Of a stretch of DNA of 64,000 nucleotides, positions 45,161 to 55,234 are shown one piece after another. Both the position numbers and the translations under genes were made by a program. The stretch comes from Flavobacteriales bacterium (GTDB lineage: Bacteria > Bacteroidota > Bacteroidia > Flavobacteriales > BACL11), in contig PAHP01000005.1 of the NCBI GenBank assembly GCA_002705205.1, positions 3,757 through 67,756 of the forward strand, written 5' to 3'. Below the pieces are notes generated by a model that made no database searches, was not told the origin of the DNA, and saw only the letters and a program-made list of their open reading frames with translations. How positions within the stretch are numbered: the first letter of the stretch is position 1; each line of letters begins with the position of its first letter.

Positions 45161-46495
45161 TTACACTAAAAGAAGCATTTTCTGCATTATTTCATCGCTT
45201 TCCCATATTTTTTTAATATTAGGAATGCTCATGATACTTTGCATAAGCTCTTCTTGCTTCATTCCAATTTCCCAAGCCTCGGAATAAGGTGTGTTTGTAA
45301 AACTAACCATAGAATAAAGAGGAACCCATTTATCTGGATATAGATTAGCAAATTTTTGCTCTATTTTTTTCTGTAATAAAAACTCAGGATCAGCAGTTTT
45401 ATCCCTCATTACTACATAATTTTGAATTGACAAATCCTGAAGCCCGTCCCCATTAGGCTTTCTATTTTGAGAATATTCAACAAAGCATGATTTTAAATCT
45501 TCTCCATGCTTATCTAATAACTCGTCTAATATTCTACAATCTTCAAGACTTGCATTCATCCCTTGACCATAAAAAGGAACCGTTGCATGAGCAGCATCAC
45601 CTATCAATACAGCCGTGTCATTTATATGCCAAGGATATGTTTTTACAATACCTAGCCCAGAAGTAGGGTTGTTAATCCACTGCTTATACAAATCAGGAAC
45701 TAAGTCATAAAAATCAGGAAATATATTCCGAAAATAACTCTCCACTTCATTCTTAGAATTTAATCTTTCAAAAGATTTTTCGCCATTTTTTGGGGCAAAT
45801 AATGTGCACGTAAAACTACCATCTAAATTTGCCAGTGCAATTAACATAAAATCTCCTCTTGGCCAAATATGAAGCGCATTCTTATCTAATAAAAAAGAAT
45901 TCTTCGGTCCAGCTGCAATATGTAGCTCTTTATAATCATGATCAATTTTTAAATAATTAAATTCATGATCATGATGCTCAACCATTTGCTTCCTAACGGC
46001 AGAAAATGTTCCATCTCCACCAATCACTAAATCAGATTGAATTCTTTGTCTTTTATTTGTGATTGTATTTTCAAAAACAACACTTGACTCTTCTAGATCA
46101 GCTTCTATACACTTCTCATTAAAATTAAGAGCCGCCCCATTCTCCTCAGCTAACCTCATCATTAATACATTTAATTGAGCTCTAGAAATAGAATAAATAG
46201 CCTGTCCTTTATTGCCATATGGCTGTTCTGTTAAGTTTCCTTTTTGATCATGCATTACTCGCTTATACATAGGAATAGCAATTTTCATCACCTCAGCATC
46301 TACCCCTACTTTTTTCAATGCCGTCAATCCTCTCTTAGAAAGTGCTAAATTGATAGATTTTCCTGCAGTAATGATTTCTGATCTTAAATCTTTTCTTCTT
46401 TCAAAAATAGTAACCTTAAATCCTCTTTTAGTAAGATATAAAGCACACAAAGAGCCTGCCAATCCAGCCCCAACAATTGTAACGTCTTTTCTCAT
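45161..46495 (-). CDS. kmo: Kynurenine 3-monooxygenase
   Basis: GAGLAG, GKSINLALSKRG, LHIWPR, GDAAHATVPFYGQGMNA, PLYSMVSFT. Confidence 0.95.
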   Translation of the reverse strand: MRKDVTIVGAGLAGSLCALYLTKRGFKVTIFERRKDLRSEIITAGKSINLALSKRGLTALKKVGVDAEVMKIAIPMYKRVMHDQKGNLTEQPYGNKGQAIYSISRAQLNVLMMRLAEENGAALNFNEKCIEADLEESSVVFENTITNKRQRIQSDLVIGGDGTFSAVRKQMVEHHDHEFNYLKIDHDYKELHIAAGPKNSFLLDKNALHIWPRGDFMLIALANLDGSFTCTLFAPKNGEKSFERLNSKNEVESYFRNIFPDFYDLVPDLYKQWINNPTSGLGIVKTYPWHINDTAVLIGDAAHATVPFYGQGMNASLEDCRILDELLDKHGEDLKSCFVEYSQNRKPNGDGLQDLSIQNYVVMRDKTADPEFLLQKKIEQKFANLYPDKWVPLYSMVSFTNTPYSEAWEIGMKQEELMQSIMSIPNIKKIWESDEIMQKMLLLV

Positions 46496-47746
46496 TTATA
46501 AAGCATCTTTCAATATAGTGTAAAATTTAAATACGTCCTCAAAGCTATTATAAAGAGGCACAGGCGCTATTCGGATTACATCAGGATCCCTCCAATCTGC
46601 AATCACTCCTTTTTCTGTAATAGATCCAAACAATTTCTTATTCCCATTTTCAACCCTAATTGAAAGCTGGCATCCTCTTTCTTTAGGAGTAATGATGCTA
46701 ATTCTTTCACTATTAATTGTAGACAATAAAAAGAGAAGATAGCCTGTAAGTTCTTTTGATTTATCCAGCAACTTGTCCATTCCTACTTCATCAAAAATGG
46801 AAAGTGACGCTCTTATTGCTGCTAAGGATAAAATTGGCGGATTACTTAATTGCCAGCCCTCAGCTGTATTAATAGGAAGAAAACTATCGGGCATCTTAAA
46901 TCTATCTTCTTTATTATGACCCCACCAACCTGCAAATCTGGGCAAATTACTATGATGATGCTTTTCATGAATAAAAGCTCCTGCAACTGATCCTGGGCCA
47001 GAATTTAAATACTTGTATGAGCACCACACTGCAAAATCAACCCCCCATTCATGCAATTCTAGTTTGATATTTCCAGCAGCATGAGCTAAATCAAAACCTA
47101 CATTTATACCTTTACTGTGTGCTATTTTGGTGATTCTCTCAAAATCAAACACTTGGCCAGTATAATAGTTCACCCCCCCCAGCATTATTAAAGCTATTTC
47201 TCCTTCATCTTTTGCTATTATTTCAGCGATATCTTCTGTTCTTATTGAGGATTCCCCATCTCTTGATTTAAGTTTAATAAGCGAACTTGCAGCAGAGAAC
47301 CCGTGATGCTCTATTTGAGATTCTACAGCATAAATATCTGATGGAAATGCATCTTCTTCAATTATAATTTTATGCTTTTTTGCAGTTGGTCGATAAAAAG
47401 AAACCATCATTAGATGAAGATTAACCGTTAATGTATTCATTGCCACTACTTCTGATTGTTTTGCTCCTACAATTCTAGCATAGCTTTCTGTTAAGAATTC
47501 ATGATACGGCATCCATGGATTTTTAGCCTGAAAATGTCCTTCGACGCCAAAAGTAGCCCAATCATCTAGCTCTTGATTTAAAAAATCCTTTGTTATTTTA
47601 GGCTGCAATCCTAGAGAGTTTCCGCACATATAAATATGCTCCTCACCATTTCTCTGTAAAGGGATATGAAATTGATTTCTATAACCTTTTAATTCATCTT
47701 TTGCATCTAAATATAATGCAAAATCTAATGTCTCTTTATAGTCCAT
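46496..47746 (-). CDS. kynU: Kynureninase (eukaryote-like clade)
   Basis: YMCGNSLGLQP, MNTLTVNLH, FPSD, DLAHAAGN, WCSYKYLNSGPG, WQLSNPP. Confidence 0.96.
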   Translation of the reverse strand: MDYKETLDFALYLDAKDELKGYRNQFHIPLQRNGEEHIYMCGNSLGLQPKITKDFLNQELDDWATFGVEGHFQAKNPWMPYHEFLTESYARIVGAKQSEVVAMNTLTVNLHLMMVSFYRPTAKKHKIIIEEDAFPSDIYAVESQIEHHGFSAASSLIKLKSRDGESSIRTEDIAEIIAKDEGEIALIMLGGVNYYTGQVFDFERITKIAHSKGINVGFDLAHAAGNIKLELHEWGVDFAVWCSYKYLNSGPGSVAGAFIHEKHHHSNLPRFAGWWGHNKEDRFKMPDSFLPINTAEGWQLSNPPILSLAAIRASLSIFDEVGMDKLLDKSKELTGYLLFLLSTINSERISIITPKERGCQLSIRVENGNKKLFGSITEKGVIADWRDPDVIRIAPVPLYNSFEDVFKFYTILKDAL

Positions 47747-48536
47747 TGATCTTATAAATAATTGGCCTGCTTGGAGCAGCATCGGAAACAAATGGAGGTA
47801 TCTGTAAGTTTAATATACAGCTACAATCCTCTAAAGAAGCAGGCGCAAAAATCATTTCTGTAATTGTTTTATTTTTAGTTTTTGCATTGAATTCCTTGTG
47901 TTCTGTTTGCCAGAATATATTGTGAGCTGAAAGATTCCCCTCATCTAACAATCTGTCTACAGAAGGAGTGTCAACTAACAAATGCTGGACCCCTAAACTT
48001 ACAATGTAATGCATTGCATCAATACTAAAAAAAGGAGTAGATAAATTCATGTAATCTCTACTTTTCTTACTTTCAGAATTTGGCAAAGTGCGTATTATTA
48101 ACCCTCTCAAAAAATGAACGTTTACACCCCTTAACTGACTCTCTAAATCTTCTTTTGTAATTACTAAATCTTCACTATTTAAACTAGGGATATATTTTTC
48201 ATCCGTTGTTTTAGGGGTAATAGAAATAAGAGTAGAAGGTATCATTTCATCTCTTAAGGATGATAAAATATCAATTCGCTCATTGGTAATATGACCAATG
48301 CACTCAGTATGCGTCCCATTACAATGAGGAGTAAAACTATATGTTTCAAAATTGCAAGGCCCCCCTTTTCTAGTATCACCAAAAAATTGCCCATCTTGAT
48401 ATGGTTTTGAAACTGCCCTGTCTACTCCATAAGTATTAGGCTGCTCTCCATTAAATTTTAGGGGAATAGAAATGTCAACTCCTTTTGAAAAATCAATACT
48501 ATATTGTCTATCACCCACTTCAATATCTGCTCTCAT
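47736..48536 (-). CDS. kynB: Cyclase-family protein, probable kynurenine formamidase
   Basis: PHCNGTHTECIGH metal motif, DTPSVD, ITEM, DAAPSRP; operon context. Confidence 0.75.
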   Translation of the reverse strand: MRADIEVGDRQYSIDFSKGVDISIPLKFNGEQPNTYGVDRAVSKPYQDGQFFGDTRKGGPCNFETYSFTPHCNGTHTECIGHITNERIDILSSLRDEMIPSTLISITPKTTDEKYIPSLNSEDLVITKEDLESQLRGVNVHFLRGLIIRTLPNSESKKSRDYMNLSTPFFSIDAMHYIVSLGVQHLLVDTPSVDRLLDEGNLSAHNIFWQTEHKEFNAKTKNKTITEMIFAPASLEDCSCILNLQIPPFVSDAAPSRPIIYKINGL

Positions 48537-49576
48537 TATATTAAGTCTTCTTTTCTCATGCCTAACCAATCTAGCACATTTTTGTGCCAAATATCTTTTT
48601 CTTCCTGTTCGGAGAGAACTCCAATTTCCTTAGCATAATCTAAAACTCTGCCAGGATATGAGGTGCCAACACCTTCAATTTCTCCTAATGGAAATGGATC
48701 ATCTAATCCGGTTATTATTTGACTAGCCCCAACACGCTTCTTTAATAAATCTAAAGTATGTGAGTCATGAACTAATGTGTCAAAATATAAATTTTTATGT
48801 CCCAATGTTTTTCTGGGATCTTGTAAGTTGTCAAATAGATCTGGCCGACCATCAAACCCTTGAATTCTTCTTCCGTAATTAGCAATAGCTAGCATTCCAC
48901 CATGTGCAAAACAAGTCCTTAAGTTGGGATATCTATTTGGCAAATCTCTAAGAGTGAATATATGTAATGCATCAGCACATTGCGCCATCATCCAAACTAG
49001 ATGAAATCTCCAGTATTGGTTTCTTAAAGCAATCATCTTCTCACCATCATAGGGGTGAATTTGAACTGCTAGGCTGTATTTATTGGCTAATTCAAATATG
49101 GGATCAACATTTACTTCTGCTATAGATAGCCAGTCTCCATTTGCATTTAAAAAATGGGTAGGCAAACAAAGCACCTTTAATTTAAGCTGATTTACACATC
49201 GGTCAATCTCCTTAAGAGCATGGTTCATGTATAATGGCTGAACTACAAAGCCACAAGTAAACTTTTCTGAATAATCAGCTTGAACAGAAGCATTGAAATC
49301 ATTTTGAAACCGAATTGCATCAATACAATCTTTTTTTTCCCAACCATTACAATATAACTGTGATAAACATAACATAACACCATGATCAATATTATGCTGA
49401 TTCATCCATTCTATTTTTTCTTTAACAAAAAATCCAGGCCCATTAATTGGCCTTGACCAATCTCCTTGCCTCATGAATTTCTTATCTTCATCAATAGAAA
49501 AGAGCTTCTTTTCTTTCATGAAATTAGGAATCTGAGAAGGCTCCGGAAGTATATGTCCATGTCCATTTATTCTCAT
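48536..49576 (-). CDS. Amidohydrolase 2 family, probable 2-amino-3-carboxymuconate-6-semialdehyde decarboxylase (ACMSD)
   Basis: HGHILP, IHP, CFAHGG, YFDTLVHD, DDPFPLGE; context next to 3-HAO. Confidence 0.8.
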   Translation of the reverse strand: MRINGHGHILPEPSQIPNFMKEKKLFSIDEDKKFMRQGDWSRPINGPGFFVKEKIEWMNQHNIDHGVMLCLSQLYCNGWEKKDCIDAIRFQNDFNASVQADYSEKFTCGFVVQPLYMNHALKEIDRCVNQLKLKVLCLPTHFLNANGDWLSIAEVNVDPIFELANKYSLAVQIHPYDGEKMIALRNQYWRFHLVWMMAQCADALHIFTLRDLPNRYPNLRTCFAHGGMLAIANYGRRIQGFDGRPDLFDNLQDPRKTLGHKNLYFDTLVHDSHTLDLLKKRVGASQIITGLDDPFPLGEIEGVGTSYPGRVLDYAKEIGVLSEQEEKDIWHKNVLDWLGMRKEDLI

Positions 49577-49650: not shown

Positions 49651-50178
49651 CTAAATATACTTTTCATCAGCGTCCATAACTTCGCCTGTTTTAGGACACG
49701 TTCTAAGTTTTTCATCAGAATAAAACCTCTTAAAGACTGGCAAGAAATCCTTTTCTACATTCGTTAAATGAAAATATTCTTCATATAATAACTCGTTGGC
49801 AGTATCAGAAAACCACATTAAACCATCCTTATGCTGATCTGTTCTTTTTCTTTCAATTACTAAACCAATAGATCCTTCTGATCTAACTGGAGAATGTGGA
49901 ATTTTTTCGGGTAAGAGAAATATCTCCCCCTCCTTAATCTCATATTCAACCAATTTGCCTTTTTGCTGAGTTTTAACTATAATATCGCCTTCAATCTGAT
50001 AGAATAGTTCTTCTGTCTCATTATAATGATAATCTTTTCTAGCATTTGGGCCTCCAACTATCATTACAATATAGTCGCCAGATTCTACGTACAAATTTTT
50101 ATTTCCTACTGGTGGCTTTAATAAATGTCTATTTTCATCAATCCATTTATGTAAGCTAAAGGGAGCTTTTATTTTCAT
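49651..50178 (-). CDS. nbaC: 3-hydroxyanthranilate 3,4-dioxygenase
   Basis: LKPPVGNK, VGGPNARKDYH..EE.FYQ, PHSPVR. Confidence 0.96.
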   Translation of the reverse strand: MKIKAPFSLHKWIDENRHLLKPPVGNKNLYVESGDYIVMIVGGPNARKDYHYNETEELFYQIEGDIIVKTQQKGKLVEYEIKEGEIFLLPEKIPHSPVRSEGSIGLVIERKRTDQHKDGLMWFSDTANELLYEEYFHLTNVEKDFLPVFKRFYSDEKLRTCPKTGEVMDADEKYI

Positions 50179-50189
50179 AATATTTATTT

Positions 50190-50606
50190 TTAAATTGTTG
50201 CTATTACTTTTAATTCTATTGCTATTGGAGTTGGCAAACTCTTTATTTCAATTGTTGTTCTACAAGGCTGATTATCTTTAAAATATTCAGCATATATTTT
50301 ATTATATATTTTAAAGTCATCTTTCATATTAGTAAGAAAGACCTGAACATCTACTATATTATCCCAAGAAGATCCAGCATCTTCTAGAATATATTTAATA
50401 TTATTAAAAACAGAATGACATTGCTCTTCAATATTATAACTTTCAATTTCTCCTTTTGAATTCAGTTTTACTCCTGGAATATCAGTTTCTCCAGCTTTTC
50501 TAGGGCCAACGCCAGATAAATATAACATACCCTCAACCTTTCTGGCATGAGGATATAATCCTACTGCACCTGGGGCTCGATCAGAATTAAATTTCTCTCC
50601 GTTCAT
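50190..50606 (-). CDS. RidA family protein, probable 2-aminomuconate deaminase
   Basis: GLYPHARK..LSGVGPR, PCRTT, LPTPIAIELK; operon context. Confidence 0.8.
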   Translation of the reverse strand: MNGEKFNSDRAPGAVGLYPHARKVEGMLYLSGVGPRKAGETDIPGVKLNSKGEIESYNIEEQCHSVFNNIKYILEDAGSSWDNIVDVQVFLTNMKDDFKIYNKIYAEYFKDNQPCRTTIEIKSLPTPIAIELKVIATI

Positions 50607-50610
50607 CTAA

Positions 50611-51063
50611 TTAAATTTCTTTATACATATAATAATGAGGGCCTATTATCTCTATATTAAACAATCCTCCCTTAGTCTTAAAGCCTACAGACTTATAAAA
50701 ATCCAATGCGGCTAATCTTGCATTGCACCATAAAAAATCAGCTCCTATTGATTTAAGTTCTAAAAATGCTGACCTTATAAGATCTCTAGCATAGCCTTTT
50801 CTCTGCAAATTAGAATCAGTTGCCATGCCTCTTAACCTATAGGCATTTACAGCATTTAATTTTGCAGATTGCTCTGGATAAAATGTAGCGCATGTCACAA
50901 CATTTCCAGCTAAAATACTAGCCATATGGAAGGTGCTATCTTCATTATCCTTCAAATAAGATGTTGTAGAAAAATCTTGCCCCTTTCTTAATTCAGCATG
51001 CCTTAAAGGTCTTATCATCTCGGCATCTACTGTCTTTATTTCTATTGGTAATTCTAAGTCCAT
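50611..51063 (-). CDS. GNAT family N-acetyltransferase
   Basis: LRH..LR, LRGMAT..QRKGYA, LWCNAR..FY..GF..GPHYYM. Confidence 0.9.
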   Translation of the reverse strand: MDLELPIEIKTVDAEMIRPLRHAELRKGQDFSTTSYLKDNEDSTFHMASILAGNVVTCATFYPEQSAKLNAVNAYRLRGMATDSNLQRKGYARDLIRSAFLELKSIGADFLWCNARLAALDFYKSVGFKTKGGLFNIEIIGPHYYMYKEI

Positions 51064-51065
51064 TT

Positions 51066-52508
51066 TTAAATTTTAACACAAATATTCTTTGGCTCTGTAA
51101 AAAAATCTAACGATTTAAAGCCTCCTTCTCTACCAACACCTGACTGCTTCATGCCTCCAAAAGGTATTCTTAAATCCCGAAGCAACCATGTGTTTATCCA
51201 TACTACTCCTGAATCAATATTTGCTGCCACTCTATGCCCTTTACTAATATTTTCTGTAAAAATAGATGCCGACAATCCGTACTTTGTAGAATTTGCCATA
51301 TCAATAACTTCAGCCTCTGTTTTAAAAGGAATTAGCGAAACAACTGGGCCAAATATCTCTGTTTGATTAATATCACAATCAGATGATAGCCCTTCAATTA
51401 TTGTGGGTTCAATATAATAACCATCTTTTAATTCTCCATCTAAAATTACACGTTTTCCTCCAATAAGAATTTTGCCTCCTAGCTTCTTAGCCTCTTCAAT
51501 CTTCGATAATATCTTATTCATATGTTCTTTAGAAACTATTGCTCCTAAATTTGAACTTATCTCTTTTGGATCGCCTACTTTTAATTTTTTAGTTTTCTCT
51601 ATTAATGCAATCTTGAATTTTTTGTAGATCTCTTCTTGAATAAAAAGGCGAGATCCACACAAGCATATTTGTCCTTGATTTGTGAAAGCAGCACGTGCAG
51701 CGGTACTAACTGCCTTATCAAAATCAGCATCAGCAAAAATAATGTTTGGATTTTTACCCCCTAATTCTAACGAAACTTTTTTAAACATTGGAGCTGTTAC
51801 TCTTGCGATATGTTTTCCTGTAACTGTCCCTCCAGTAAAAGAAATAATTGGAGTGTCTATATGAGTGGTAAGCGGATCTCCTATTTTACTTCCTAAGCCA
51901 TGTACAATATTTAATATCCCCTTTGGTAAGCCAGCCTCAATACAGATTTTACTTAACATAAAGGCAGTCATAGGAGTGATCTCAGAAGGCTTTGCAACTA
52001 CAGTGTTACCAGAGGCTAAAGCTGGCGCAATCTTCCAAGTGAGCAAATAAAGTGGCAAATTCCAAGGAGAAATACAGGCTGCTACACCAACTGGTTGTCG
52101 AAGAGTATAATTTATTGCTACACCATCCATTTCATGCATCTGAGAGCTGTCATGTAGAATAGCTCCTGCAAAAAACCTTATATTAGCTGGTGCCCGTGGT
52201 ATATCAACATGAGCAGCTAAATTTTCAGGCTTGCCATTATCTTTACTTTCAGCTTTTATCAGTTCTGATGAATATTTCTCAATAGTATCTGCAAGTTTCA
52301 TTAAAATATTTGCACGCTCTTGTTTTGGAGTTTTACTCCAACTATTAAATGCTTCTTTTGCTGCTAAAACTGCATTATTTATATCTGACTCTTCAGAGTC
52401 AGGGACTAAAGAATATACCTGACCATTAGAAGGATTATAATTGTCTAAATAATTCCCACTTGTTGGCTCAACTAATTCTCCATTTATATAATTTAAAATC
52501 TTTTCCAT
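51066..52508 (-). CDS. 2-aminomuconic 6-semialdehyde dehydrogenase (ALDH8-like)
   Basis: ISPWNLPLYLLTWKIAPA, ELGGKNP, NQGQICLCGSR, EIFGPV, WLLRDLRIPFGG. Confidence 0.88.
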   Translation of the reverse strand: MEKILNYINGELVEPTSGNYLDNYNPSNGQVYSLVPDSEESDINNAVLAAKEAFNSWSKTPKQERANILMKLADTIEKYSSELIKAESKDNGKPENLAAHVDIPRAPANIRFFAGAILHDSSQMHEMDGVAINYTLRQPVGVAACISPWNLPLYLLTWKIAPALASGNTVVAKPSEITPMTAFMLSKICIEAGLPKGILNIVHGLGSKIGDPLTTHIDTPIISFTGGTVTGKHIARVTAPMFKKVSLELGGKNPNIIFADADFDKAVSTAARAAFTNQGQICLCGSRLFIQEEIYKKFKIALIEKTKKLKVGDPKEISSNLGAIVSKEHMNKILSKIEEAKKLGGKILIGGKRVILDGELKDGYYIEPTIIEGLSSDCDINQTEIFGPVVSLIPFKTEAEVIDMANSTKYGLSASIFTENISKGHRVAANIDSGVVWINTWLLRDLRIPFGGMKQSGVGREGGFKSLDFFTEPKNICVKI

Positions 52509-53287
52509 TATAAACTCTGTGTCCTTCCTCCATCTACCGGAATATTAACTCCATTAATATATGAGGCTGCAGGAGTGCATAAAAAAGCTATAGCGTTTGC
52601 GACTTCACTAGCTTCTCCAAATCGATTTGCTGGAACAGAAGCTCTCATAACAGCTGCAATCTCTTGCTCTTTCTTTCCTTGTTTTGCAGCTTTATTAGCA
52701 ATGATACTTTTTAATCTATTTGTATTTGTAAATCCAGGTAAGACATTATTAACTGTAATCCCATGAGAGCCTAATTCAATAGATAAAGTTTTTGCCCAAT
52801 TTGCGACTGCTGCTCGTATAGTATTAGAAACCCCTAATCCAGGGATTGGGGCTTTTACTGATGTAGAAATAATATTTATAATTCTACCAAAACAGTCTTT
52901 CTTCATCCCTTCAACAACCTTCTGAACTAAGATTTGATTATTAATCAAATGCATTTTAAATGCATTCTCAAAAGCATTAATATCCGCATCAACAATTGGG
53001 CCTCCAGCTGGACCTCCGGTATTATTAATTAAAATATTATAGCTACCCTGTAATGAAGCTACAGCTATTTTTAATTTATCTGTATTGGAAAAATCTACAC
53101 AGACAAAGCTATGCTTCTGACCTATTGATTTATCTAATTTACTTAACATATCAGAAAGCTTGCTCTCATTTCTAGCCATCAAAGTAATATTTGCCCCCAA
53201 TTTTGCTAATGCAATCGCAGACGCCTCTCCAATTCCTTGAGTGCTACCACACACAATGGCATTTTTATTTTTTAAGTCTAAATTCAT
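52508..53287 (-). CDS. Atypical SDR family oxidoreductase (no catalytic Tyr)
   Basis: GSTQGIG, NNTGGP, SNTIR in place of YxxxK, NNVLPG, VDGG. Confidence 0.88.
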   Translation of the reverse strand: MNLDLKNKNAIVCGSTQGIGEASAIALAKLGANITLMARNESKLSDMLSKLDKSIGQKHSFVCVDFSNTDKLKIAVASLQGSYNILINNTGGPAGGPIVDADINAFENAFKMHLINNQILVQKVVEGMKKDCFGRIINIISTSVKAPIPGLGVSNTIRAAVANWAKTLSIELGSHGITVNNVLPGFTNTNRLKSIIANKAAKQGKKEQEIAAVMRASVPANRFGEASEVANAIAFLCTPAASYINGVNIPVDGGRTQSL

Positions 53288-54375
53288 ATATTATTATAGT
53301 TAAATGAAAGTTTATCTTTTATCTTTTTAGGCAGATCTGGCAAATAAGATCTAGATATCATAAGTGTTGCAATATTTGCCAAATCTGTAAATAACTTATG
53401 CTTGTCTACAGTCTGCTTTAAATACCCCTGTCCAGAACTGCCTCCTGTGCCTATTTTTTGTCCAAGCATTTTTTCTACCATCTGGACATGTCTAAATCTC
53501 CAAGTAGCAATTTTATGATCAAGCTCAACTAAACTTCTAAGGAATTGATATGGTAAATGTAAAATTGGTTGGTCTCTATATAAATTAATTAGTAGGGCAG
53601 ACATTGTTGCTTTATAAGAAAGTTTTGTCTCTCCTTCTTTGATGGCTTTATTATGCTCCTCTTCATTTAATACTCGATCAAAATACTTTCTATTTTCATC
53701 AATCATTCGTATTCTAAGAGTTCTATCTTCCTCTGTTAAATTTGCTGATTTAATTCCTTCAATTTCTTTTTCCATCATTTGACTTACAGCTTCTTCATAT
53801 TTTTTAGTAAAATCAAAACCTTCCATACTTAAAAACGGGATGCGCTCTAACCATTTCTCTAATAACGAAAATAAAGATTCATTCTCTTCAAGATTTAATA
53901 TTTCTTCTTTCTTTTTCCCTTCAAACTGAGAGTGATAAGGGCACCCTCCAAATTGATGTCTCTTTTCTATTTTTAGCCCTAACATTACCTCTATTTTTCT
54001 AAATTGATGCGATTGAAATCCAGAAGCAGGAGACAGATAATCCCTAAATTCTAAAAAATCTAAAGAAGTCATTGTCTCTAAAATATCTAACTGACCCACA
54101 AGAGTATTCATAATTTTATTCACTCTATCCATCCTTCTAACAATAACTCCAATATTGCTCTCGTCAATCTGCTTAGCCCTAAATAAAACCATCGTCGAAT
54201 CTAGCTCGTGTAATATCTGCTTAAACCATAATTCATAGGTTTGATGAATAATAATAAAGAGCATCTCCTCATGAGCTGCTTTGCCTTTTTCTTTACTAAC
54301 AAGATTTTGAGCATCTAATACCTTATCGAGTGAGAGGTAATTAATATAGTGAACTGATGATGGTTTTTCTGACAT
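53284..54375 (-). CDS. kynA: Tryptophan 2,3-dioxygenase (long form)
   Basis: HEEMLFIIIHQTYELWFKQ, PASGFQS, WRFRH, GTGGSSG. Confidence 0.96.
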   Translation of the reverse strand: MSEKPSSVHYINYLSLDKVLDAQNLVSKEKGKAAHEEMLFIIIHQTYELWFKQILHELDSTMVLFRAKQIDESNIGVIVRRMDRVNKIMNTLVGQLDILETMTSLDFLEFRDYLSPASGFQSHQFRKIEVMLGLKIEKRHQFGGCPYHSQFEGKKKEEILNLEENESLFSLLEKWLERIPFLSMEGFDFTKKYEEAVSQMMEKEIEGIKSANLTEEDRTLRIRMIDENRKYFDRVLNEEEHNKAIKEGETKLSYKATMSALLINLYRDQPILHLPYQFLRSLVELDHKIATWRFRHVQMVEKMLGQKIGTGGSSGQGYLKQTVDKHKLFTDLANIATLMISRSYLPDLPKKIKDKLSFNYNNI

Positions 54376-54415: not shown

Positions 54416-55234
54416 TTAAAAAATCAATTCTGAAATAAGCAAAAGAAAATAACTAATAAGACTTAATGATTCCACCCAAAAAGAGAAATATCTTTCTCCT
54501 TTTCTTTTATCTGATTTTTGGATAAAAAATGAAGCTAAAATATATAGTAAAAGTAATGCTAGTAAATTTGCTAAATTTAAAGTCATCTCAAGGTATTGAA
54601 TAAAAGCAATTAGCCCACAAATAAAAAGCGCAAAAATAGCAATATACTTAGCTCTTTTTACTCCAAAGAATAAAGGAATAGTTATGACATTGCGTAAGTC
54701 ATACTCAACATCTCTAATGTCAAAAGGTATAGTTATCGAAAAAATAAATAGAAAAAGAGACGCGAGTCTAAAAATAATATCTTGAGATATTTGAATGTTG
54801 TTTTCTAATACTAAAAGCAGCATAGTACTAACTGACCAAACAAAAGAAATAATAAAGATTTTTGCAAAAGGAATTTTTCTTATTCCAAATGGATACAAAA
54901 TAGAAAGAGATCCGGCAAATAAAATAGCAATTTTTGTAGTTGATCTAAAATCAAAAAAAAGATATGCACTTGCCGTTGCTGAGATCAACATTAAAAAATA
55001 AACTGCTTTTACATTCTTATATAGCCAATCTTTATAATAATGCTCATGGCCTTTTTTTAACCTAACTACTCTCTGGAAATTATATGCAAATATTGTAGAT
55101 GAAAAAACAAACTGAGAAATTTTAAGATTAGTTGCTTCTAATAATATCTCAGCACTAAATACAAGTCCTAAAACACAAAAAGCCACCCAAATATTACTAT
55201 TTATAAAAAAACGAATTATTGATTGCACTGCCAA
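54416..55234 (-). CDS. UbiA prenyltransferase-like membrane protein
   Basis: Multiple TM segments; RKIPFAK, PFDIRDVEYD..TIP; first Asp-rich motif degenerate; start uncertain. Confidence 0.7.
   Translation of the reverse strand: MAVQSIIRFFINSNIWVAFCVLGLVFSAEILLEATNLKISQFVFSSTIFAYNFQRVVRLKKGHEHYYKDWLYKNVKAVYFLMLISATASAYLFFDFRSTTKIAILFAGSLSILYPFGIRKIPFAKIFIISFVWSVSTMLLLVLENNIQISQDIIFRLASLFLFIFSITIPFDIRDVEYDLRNVITIPLFFGVKRAKYIAIFALFICGLIAFIQYLEMTLNLANLLALLLLYILASFFIQKSDKRKGERYFSFWVESLSLISYFLLLISELIF

Follow-up and report, generated by a model that had tools for sequence, protein, structure and literature searches.

The stretch of DNA analysed here, called the window below, comprises 64,000 nucleotides of a Flavobacteriales bacterium (assembly GCA_002705205.1, contig PAHP01000005.1, positions 3,757 to 67,756 of the forward strand). 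At 52508..53287 on its (-) strand lies the gene of an atypical short-chain dehydrogenase/reductase (SDR), set in a kynurenine operon. We propose that this SDR is probably an NADPH-dependent ene-reductase, which would convert 2-oxohex-3-enedioate (4-oxalocrotonate) into 2-oxoadipate after the action of a Rid-family deaminase. An original prediction, made from the sequence alone, had put forward a similar role; our analysis bears it out in part, and it is the best supported of the readings considered. We infer the cofactor, substrate and product, as well as the parts played by individual residues, from the anatomy, conservation, linkage, co-occurrence and fold reported below.

The operon consists of ten consecutive genes on the (-) strand, encoding in order tryptophan 2,3-dioxygenase (TDO), the SDR, 2-aminomuconate semialdehyde dehydrogenase (AMSDH), a GNAT protein, a Rid-family protein, 3-hydroxyanthranilate 3,4-dioxygenase (HAO), ACMS decarboxylase (ACMSD), a cyclase-family protein, kynureninase (KYNU) and kynurenine 3-monooxygenase (KMO). 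Best matches in NCBIfam, Pfam and the PDB bear out the earlier claim that every upstream step to 2-aminomuconate is encoded there, the identity of KMO being one that we infer from a FAD-monooxygenase match and from the position of the gene. The SDR is the sole unassigned oxidoreductase of the operon and, as had been predicted, no 4-oxalocrotonate decarboxylase, hydratase or aldolase of the lower pathway was found among the operon genes.

The SDR gene shares 4 nt with the stop of TDO (ATGA) and 1 nt with the start of AMSDH (TAATG), and thus overlaps both neighbours, as first noticed in the original prediction. Its product, of 259 aa, carries the Gly-rich motif CGSTQGIG at residues 13-20 and scores above cut-off with PF13561 and PF00106, which places it in the SDR superfamily. 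At the usual Tyr/Lys position, 13 residues past the canonical Ser141, S154-N-T-I-R158 is found; no YxxxK occurs in the entire protein, whose only tyrosines are Y83 and Y243. Both this replacement and the Arg after beta-2 (A38-R39-N40, directly following the strand) had been correctly read, and Arg39 points to NADPH as the likely cofactor. The earlier note does not mention a further feature: His113 takes the place of the tetrad Asn, with the canonical Ser141 retained. Proteins of this kind are labelled FabG, 3-oxoacyl-ACP reductase, by JGI. We rejected the identity with FabG or another classical ketoreductase on three counts, namely SNTIR in place of YxxxK, the change of the tetrad Asn to His113 despite the kept Ser141, and a TIGR01830 score of 124 bits for a cut-off of 298. 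The top NCBIfam profile, PRK08339, reached 178 bits, under its cut-off of 339. Membership of the BKR_like_SDR_like subgroup of CDD (cd05344) may be considered in view of a match to APE0912. The ESM Atlas returned generic SDR clusters only, and plasmids gave distant SDRs only (best 38% identity among the best 30 of 244 records).

Gene linkage was counted within 10 kb of the SDR in the best 80 of 297 loci from GTDB genomes. AMSDH was present in 51 of these, ACMSD in 42, Rid and KYNU in 40 each and HAO in 32; at least one pathway gene was found in 55 and none in 25. Metagenome loci gave similar results, with at least one pathway gene in 61 of 80, and in 35 of the 43 loci that span at least 10 kb. 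In a second phylum (that of G252; Phycisphaerales), AMSDH and Rid were both found in 14 of 25 loci, and any pathway gene in 15. The linkage to kynurenine genes required by the original prediction is therefore conserved. With AMSDH in 51 of the 80 GTDB loci, the operon arrangement is beyond chance. At least five gene orders around the SDR were observed, including divergent ones, from which we concluded that the linkage survived rearrangement; AMSDH adjoins the SDR in most of them. Homologues of DmpH, DmpG and DmpF were found in none of 105 SDR loci (80 metagenome and 25 second-phylum).

Next, the presence of SDR, AMSDH and HAO was profiled in the same 250 Bacteroidota genomes (at least 90% complete), using cut-offs of at least 44% identity for the SDR and at least 51% for AMSDH, chosen after the score gaps were seen. 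The SDR was scored in 43 genomes and AMSDH in 37, with both in 35 and neither in 205; the genomes are related and these counts overstate independence, which tells to some extent against our proposal. The two AMSDH genomes without SDR were G116, whose SDR (43%) nevertheless falls inside the clade on a quick tree, and G106; G111 is a borderline third case, with an AMSDH of 49% within a full cluster. Among 201 genomes of the second phylum, 26 had the SDR and 22 AMSDH, and the SDR was present in all 22 AMSDH genomes. Taking both phylum samples together, 57 of the 59 AMSDH genomes carry the SDR. The co-occurrence with AMSDH, for which phylogenetic profiling had been suggested, is thus borne out. 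A pathway-type Rid was found in all 37 AMSDH genomes of the Bacteroidota (that of G206 being assigned by its position beside ACMSD) and in none of the 8 SDR-only genomes. Of the HAO-positive, AMSDH-negative Bacteroidota genomes, in which the pathway probably serves NAD synthesis alone, 2 out of 18 had the SDR. The SDR tracks the catabolic branch rather than NAD synthesis.

A third group, the class of G461 (presumably Gammaproteobacteria), had HAO in 16 of 250 genomes, of which 14 were examined, two unpublished genomes being left out. Six genomes had a window-type Rid and ACMSD beside HAO, and five of the six had the SDR; AMSDH was seen at four of these six loci, and the contigs of the other two end first. 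Five genomes without a catabolic gene at the locus (G667, G478, G632, G514 and G671) were without an SDR orthologue.

A search for 4-oxalocrotonate decarboxylase with TIGR03218 was carried out in 67 chosen genomes, comprising all those with SDR, AMSDH or HAO and four more whose SDRs are distant. Strong yet below-cut-off matches were obtained only in G106 and G048, neither of which has an SDR orthologue, and weak ones in G162 and G035. No strong match was found in the 35 genomes with both SDR and AMSDH (one weak match, 4.7e-15), and no match in 34 further SDR genomes. In the third group, none of the 5 SDR genomes matched, and two genomes without SDR orthologue, G667 and G548, scored above the cut-off. 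G106 also encodes 4-hydroxy-2-oxovalerate aldolase and acylating aldehyde dehydrogenase, both above cut-off, and in G048 the decarboxylase-like gene is located inside the kynurenine cluster. Strong matches are thus confined to four SDR-less genomes, in line with the predicted anti-correlation, albeit on a decarboxylase side of four HAO-positive genomes only, the kin among which are not independent.

The AlphaFold2 model of the SDR (pLDDT 94) had template-modelling (TM) scores above 0.9 to SDRs. Foldseek ranked four Burkholderia NADP(H)-bound SDRs without assigned function first, followed by AerF and YwfH/BacG (ranks 6-11, TM 0.89-0.94), which are the nearest characterised structures, and then by FabG. 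VIA-align superposed the SDR on 3u4c with a Z of 35.6 and a root-mean-square deviation of 1.5 over 250 aligned residues. Conservation was assessed on 200 loci at 44% identity or more, plus 20 more distant SDRs. Residues R39, S141, T142, S143, P147, S154, R158 and R191 were invariant in 199-200 of the 200 loci, columns 141 and 142 being biased by a pattern that spanned them and was used to collect sequences. H113 was found in 199 of 200 loci and in 2 of the 20 distant SDRs, and K/R145 in 198 of 200; position 117 was Asn in 176 loci, Ala in 10 and Ser in 9. On the quick tree, built from 73 of the 220 rows (the window, every distant row and 45 close rows drawn at random), the SDR clade had a support of 93 (unstarred).

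These features suggest the following mechanism. The neighbouring Rid deaminase would likely make 2-oxohex-3-enedioate. This is a 2-oxo-3-enoate, a reactive group that the substrate of BacG has too. Hydride from NADPH (Arg39) would be added at C4 of the 2-oxo-3-enoate, with Ser141 and His113 holding the enol(ate) and with the carboxylates bound by Lys145, Arg191 and Thr142-Ser143; the C3 proton could come from His113 or from water. The enol would then tautomerise in water to the achiral 2-oxoadipate, and because this product has no stereocentre, no dedicated Tyr acid may be needed. 2-Oxoadipate would finally enter the 2-oxoglutarate dehydrogenase complex and, after it, glutaryl-CoA dehydrogenase. 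In plant SDRs, a swap of the catalytic Tyr toggles keto- versus ene-reduction (PMC4988501, in part).

Several observations weigh against this assignment. Eight of the 43 SDR-positive Bacteroidota genomes are without AMSDH, six of them also without HAO, and seven gave no match to the one ACMSD query used; in the second phylum, 4 of 26 SDR genomes are without AMSDH. The SDRs of AMSDH-less genomes nevertheless retain the conserved active-site residues. The SDR without AMSDH means either slow loss or a second substrate. Two genomes, G111 and G541 (loci L093 and L250), have AMSDH, ACMSD and Rid in full catabolic kynurenine clusters, and the SDR clade, DmpH and the ASPDH domain were all not found in them. 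Neither was an ASPDH-like substitute enzyme, and they possibly hold a further, fourth solution, or suffer from assembly gaps. At the protein level, Leu occupies position 113 in G116 and G339, where AMSDH nonetheless co-occurs, SNxxR occurs throughout the family, in unlinked SDRs too, and classical ketoreductases score only about 1-2 Z units below AerF and BacG with VIA-align. The site of the helix-4 Tyr of AerF is Asn117 in the SDR, which therefore has no relocated Tyr. The window Rid is no nearer AmnE (6IZH, E 6.7e-20) than generic RidA. Finally, ASPDH, the only solved reductase acting on the 2-aminomuconate node, delivers its hydride to C2, according to the accessible part of a June 2026 preprint (bioRxiv 10.64898/2026.06.05.730449).

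The intact SDRs of AMSDH-less genomes would also be expected if the protein were a broader enone-detoxifying or side-branch reductase, with another or an additional substrate and an opportunistic tie to the kynurenine genes. The SDR flanks kynureninase in G062 and G138, although both lack HAO and AMSDH, and related SNxxR SDRs are found in unrelated contexts. We consider this explanation unlikely, as nearly all AMSDH genomes of the two phylum samples carry the SDR, and as its exclusion with DmpH recurs in three groups, a pattern not expected of a passenger.

It is likewise improbable that the SDR delivers hydride to C2 in the manner of human ASPDH, giving 2-hydroxyhex-3-enedioate when it acts on the keto acid, or L-2-aminohex-3-enedioate when it acts on 2-aminomuconate, and feeding a different lower route. 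Carbonyl reduction is the activity of most SDRs, and in the C2 reduction by ASPDH the proton is donated by a conserved His (bioRxiv 10.64898/2026.06.05.730449, part of the text), which recalls the conserved His113 that marks the SDR clade. However, the Tyr/Lys pair for carbonyl reduction is missing, the clusters show no further conserved gene to process such a product, and a deaminase is kept alongside the SDR, while in eukaryotes a genome has either the deaminase or ASPDH, the fungi using a Rid-family deaminase (same preprint, in the part available).

The ene-reduction of 2-oxohex-3-enedioate supposes that the Rid protein acts first. The window Rid gene (50190..50606, (-) strand; PF01042, with AmnE as second PDB match) likely encodes a 2-aminomuconate deaminase of a second type. 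Window Rid and AmnE share an Arg and a loop insertion. In Flavobacteriaceae-type operons the same slot is filled by a clear AmnE orthologue (L017:8108-8527, E 2.5e-56); the two types, about 35% alike, alternate beside AMSDH, and on sequence grounds the window type would be a second 2-aminomuconate deaminase subfamily. It is also found in G106, a decarboxylase-route genome. The reversed order, in which the SDR would first act on C4-C5 of 2-aminomuconate (or of the imine tautomer), yielding 2-aminohex-2-enedioate/2-iminoadipate, with Rid then hydrolysing the enamine to 2-oxoadipate, could account for the especially tight coupling of SDR and AMSDH and for a window-type Rid equally near generic enamine deaminases and AmnE, but is hardly probable given that Rid is a true AmnE orthologue in many operons, that the decarboxylase route of G106 needs 2-oxohex-3-enedioate, and that the extra Arg is common to both Rid types and AmnE.

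The other operon genes, all on the (-) strand, were identified as follows. TDO (53284..54375) is of the long type, with TIGR03036 as best match (E 3.6e-50) under its cut-off. For AMSDH (51066..52508), the top PDB matches are AMSDH (E 3e-130), and TIGR03216 is best among profiles, under cut-off. HAO (49651..50178) scores above cut-off with NF009763 and TIGR03037. ACMSD (48536..49576) is of a divergent type, with ACMSD as top PDB matches (E 7e-30) and a PF04909 domain. The cyclase-family protein of KynB type (47736..48590; PF04199) is likely the kynurenine formamidase, and KYNU (46496..47791) is above cut-off with TIGR01814; in both cases the true start is probably downstream of the listed TTG. 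The putative KMO (45161..46495) is linked in 35 of the 80 GTDB loci. The GNAT acetyltransferase (50611..51063) is a variable passenger, present in 14 of 80 GTDB loci. Upstream of TDO, a UbiA-like membrane protein is encoded (54416-55234), which 17 of 80 loci have; both are confined largely to close relatives. Two ACMSD types, only 27-31% alike, replace one another at a single position of the operon in closely related marine Flavobacteriales (48536-49576 of the window compared with L010:4613-5626, L011, L015, L016, L018 and L024), and each pairs with its own HAO type (about 85% versus 63%). Judged from these sequences, the exchange is a module replacement.

A scan for promoters and terminators stayed at shuffle level (59 versus 65, and 4 versus 6). 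Assembled contigs from four RNA runs gave partial cover, including a 310-nt exact match within the SDR, and contigs of this kind cannot show transcription; 8 sequencing runs contained just 5-8% of the sampled words and were not used as evidence of expression. Among SDR relatives, an apparent SDR-AMSDH fusion, P0122, was discarded. Represented by one metagenome sequence only, it has an AMSDH match that ends at 418 of 480 and an altered SDR tail, and looks like a frameshift error; the other long SDR matches look like over-extended N-termini. In P0129 (498 aa, 5 member sequences), a PF00551 domain is fused to an SDR of 40% identity that has His at position 113. Three loci titled Oceanospirillaceae, Paceibacteria and Gammaproteobacteria (L048, L053 and L078) carry Flavobacteriaceae- or Bacteroidota-like genes, and are probably mislabelled or contaminated bins.

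The source genome, G000, is 1.21 Mb long and 73% complete, and its nearest relatives are metagenome-assembled genomes (MAGs) of marine Flavobacteriales. It encodes OGDH E1. As to a meta-cleavage lower pathway elsewhere in the genome, DmpH and DmpG were not found, which at this completeness is no true absence, and the sole FAH-family gene encodes a 203 aa protein of YcgM/FAHD1 type; DmpH was also found in none of 8 close MAGs. The earlier suggestion is so far sustained. NadC was not found despite the presence of HAO, either because only 73% of the genome is covered or because the pathway may serve catabolism alone. A search for glutaryl-CoA dehydrogenase was also suggested earlier. The gene was not found in the incomplete source genome, again not an absence, and all 8 close MAGs have it, interrupted in one case by a single TGA stop (G259:C1:471215-472384). 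We discarded it as a pathway marker, for 66 of 66 complete genomes carry it, pathway or not. In five loci it lies 2-9 kb from the SDR (L086:2598-3779, L107:11367-12572, L108:2570-3751, L109:2436-3617 and L191), in two of them on the same strand behind SDR-AMSDH-KYNU-KMO, which is suggestive only.

In the literature, the step itself is drawn, a 2026 review listing an 'oxalocrotonate reductase' in its pathway figure (PMC12899273, part of the source). The ASPDH preprint, in the text available, leaves the steps to 2-oxoadipate without assignment, and its main text, to that extent, has no mention of SDR, short-chain, Bacteroid or Flavobacter (bioRxiv 10.64898/2026.06.05.730449). A paper assigning the SDR was not found in open-access PMC and bioRxiv, subscription journals being mostly uncovered. 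A fungal cluster holds a syntenic SDR, ATEG_10008 (PMC7842363, in part), and related literature, from which we draw no specific claim, includes PMC10143770, PMC10143591 and PMC6742747 (each in part). The candidate is small, soluble and single-domain, and the oxalocrotonate reductase step could be tested by one coupled assay. If true, the assignment would complete the tryptophan catabolic pathway of bacteria that are abundant in the sea and in soil, correct a frequent '3-oxoacyl-ACP reductase' label, and add an SDR ene-reductase that functions with no catalytic Tyr at all. The human enzyme would not be identified by it, and the animal angle is weaker since the ASPDH preprint.

Among known systems, AerF is close to the SDR in fold (TM 0.93-0.94) at about 32% identity. 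It also is without YxxxK and carries a basic residue where the tetrad Asn would be; in the profile alignment it shares T-S-x-K-x-P and the equivalents of Ser154 and Arg191. Its structures include an NADPH complex, and a 2-oxo acid is bound in 6JHB. It differs by a helix-4 Lys and Tyr (here His113 and Asn117), by Asn at the Arg158 site, by a biosynthetic role (Choi) and by a cyclic substrate. BacG/YwfH of Bacillus subtilis (3U49/3U4C/3U4D) is an NADPH reductase of the same fold, 30% identical, and serves bacilysin biosynthesis instead. Its reaction is a conjugate hydride addition on a 2-oxo-3-enoate, and its catalytic pair is reported to be Lys113/Tyr117, with the relocated Tyr on helix 4. With no YxxxK, a basic residue in place of the tetrad Asn and, after beta-2, an NADPH-type Arg39, our SDR resembles this type, and may work like AerF and BacG, yet by the helix-4 Tyr test it is no member. 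The conversion of H2HPP into H4HPP by BacG is described in the part available of PMC9147277. The structural-genomics SDRs 5IDX/5IDY/5VA8/5VPS (Burkholderia), APE0912 (2Z1N; E 1e-36) and TM1169 (1O5I) are the top sequence and fold matches, have SNxxR and are NADP(H)-bound, but are 33-35% identical, have no function in their titles, and carry Asn or a hydrophobic residue instead of His113.

ASPDH/AMR, found by co-evolution, is like the SDR a NAD(P)H reductase at the 2-aminomuconate node with a conserved His, but belongs to an unrelated family and acts on 2-aminomuconate without a deaminase. The statement of the original prediction that the animal route reduces this intermediate to 2-oxoadipate needs correcting, since the human enzyme forms L-2-aminohex-3-enedioate, not 2-oxoadipate (bioRxiv 10.64898/2026.06.05.730449, part of the text). 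The SDR would therefore be a bacterial solution and not the animal-type enzyme; its fold is not that of aspartate dehydrogenase, and PF01958, the ASPDH domain, was found in 0 of 5 genomes, G000 included. The proteobacterial lower pathway (AmnD/E, DmpH, DmpE, DmpG, DmpF) has identical upstream steps to 2-oxohex-3-enedioate (PMC10470539, in part), and differs by a decarboxylation that leads to pyruvate and acetyl-CoA, for which no genes were found in the 105 SDR loci or in the SDR genomes searched. Beside these proteobacterial decarboxylase and animal ASPDH routes, we lean, somewhat less firmly than for the reaction itself, towards the His113 SDR clade as the source of the oxalocrotonate reductase, a step that textbook schemes show geneless. 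A deaminase followed by an ene-reductase, with 2-oxoadipate as the product, would then be a third way of dealing with 2-aminomuconate, and the main tryptophan-ring route of aerobic Bacteroidota, planctomycetes and some proteobacteria.

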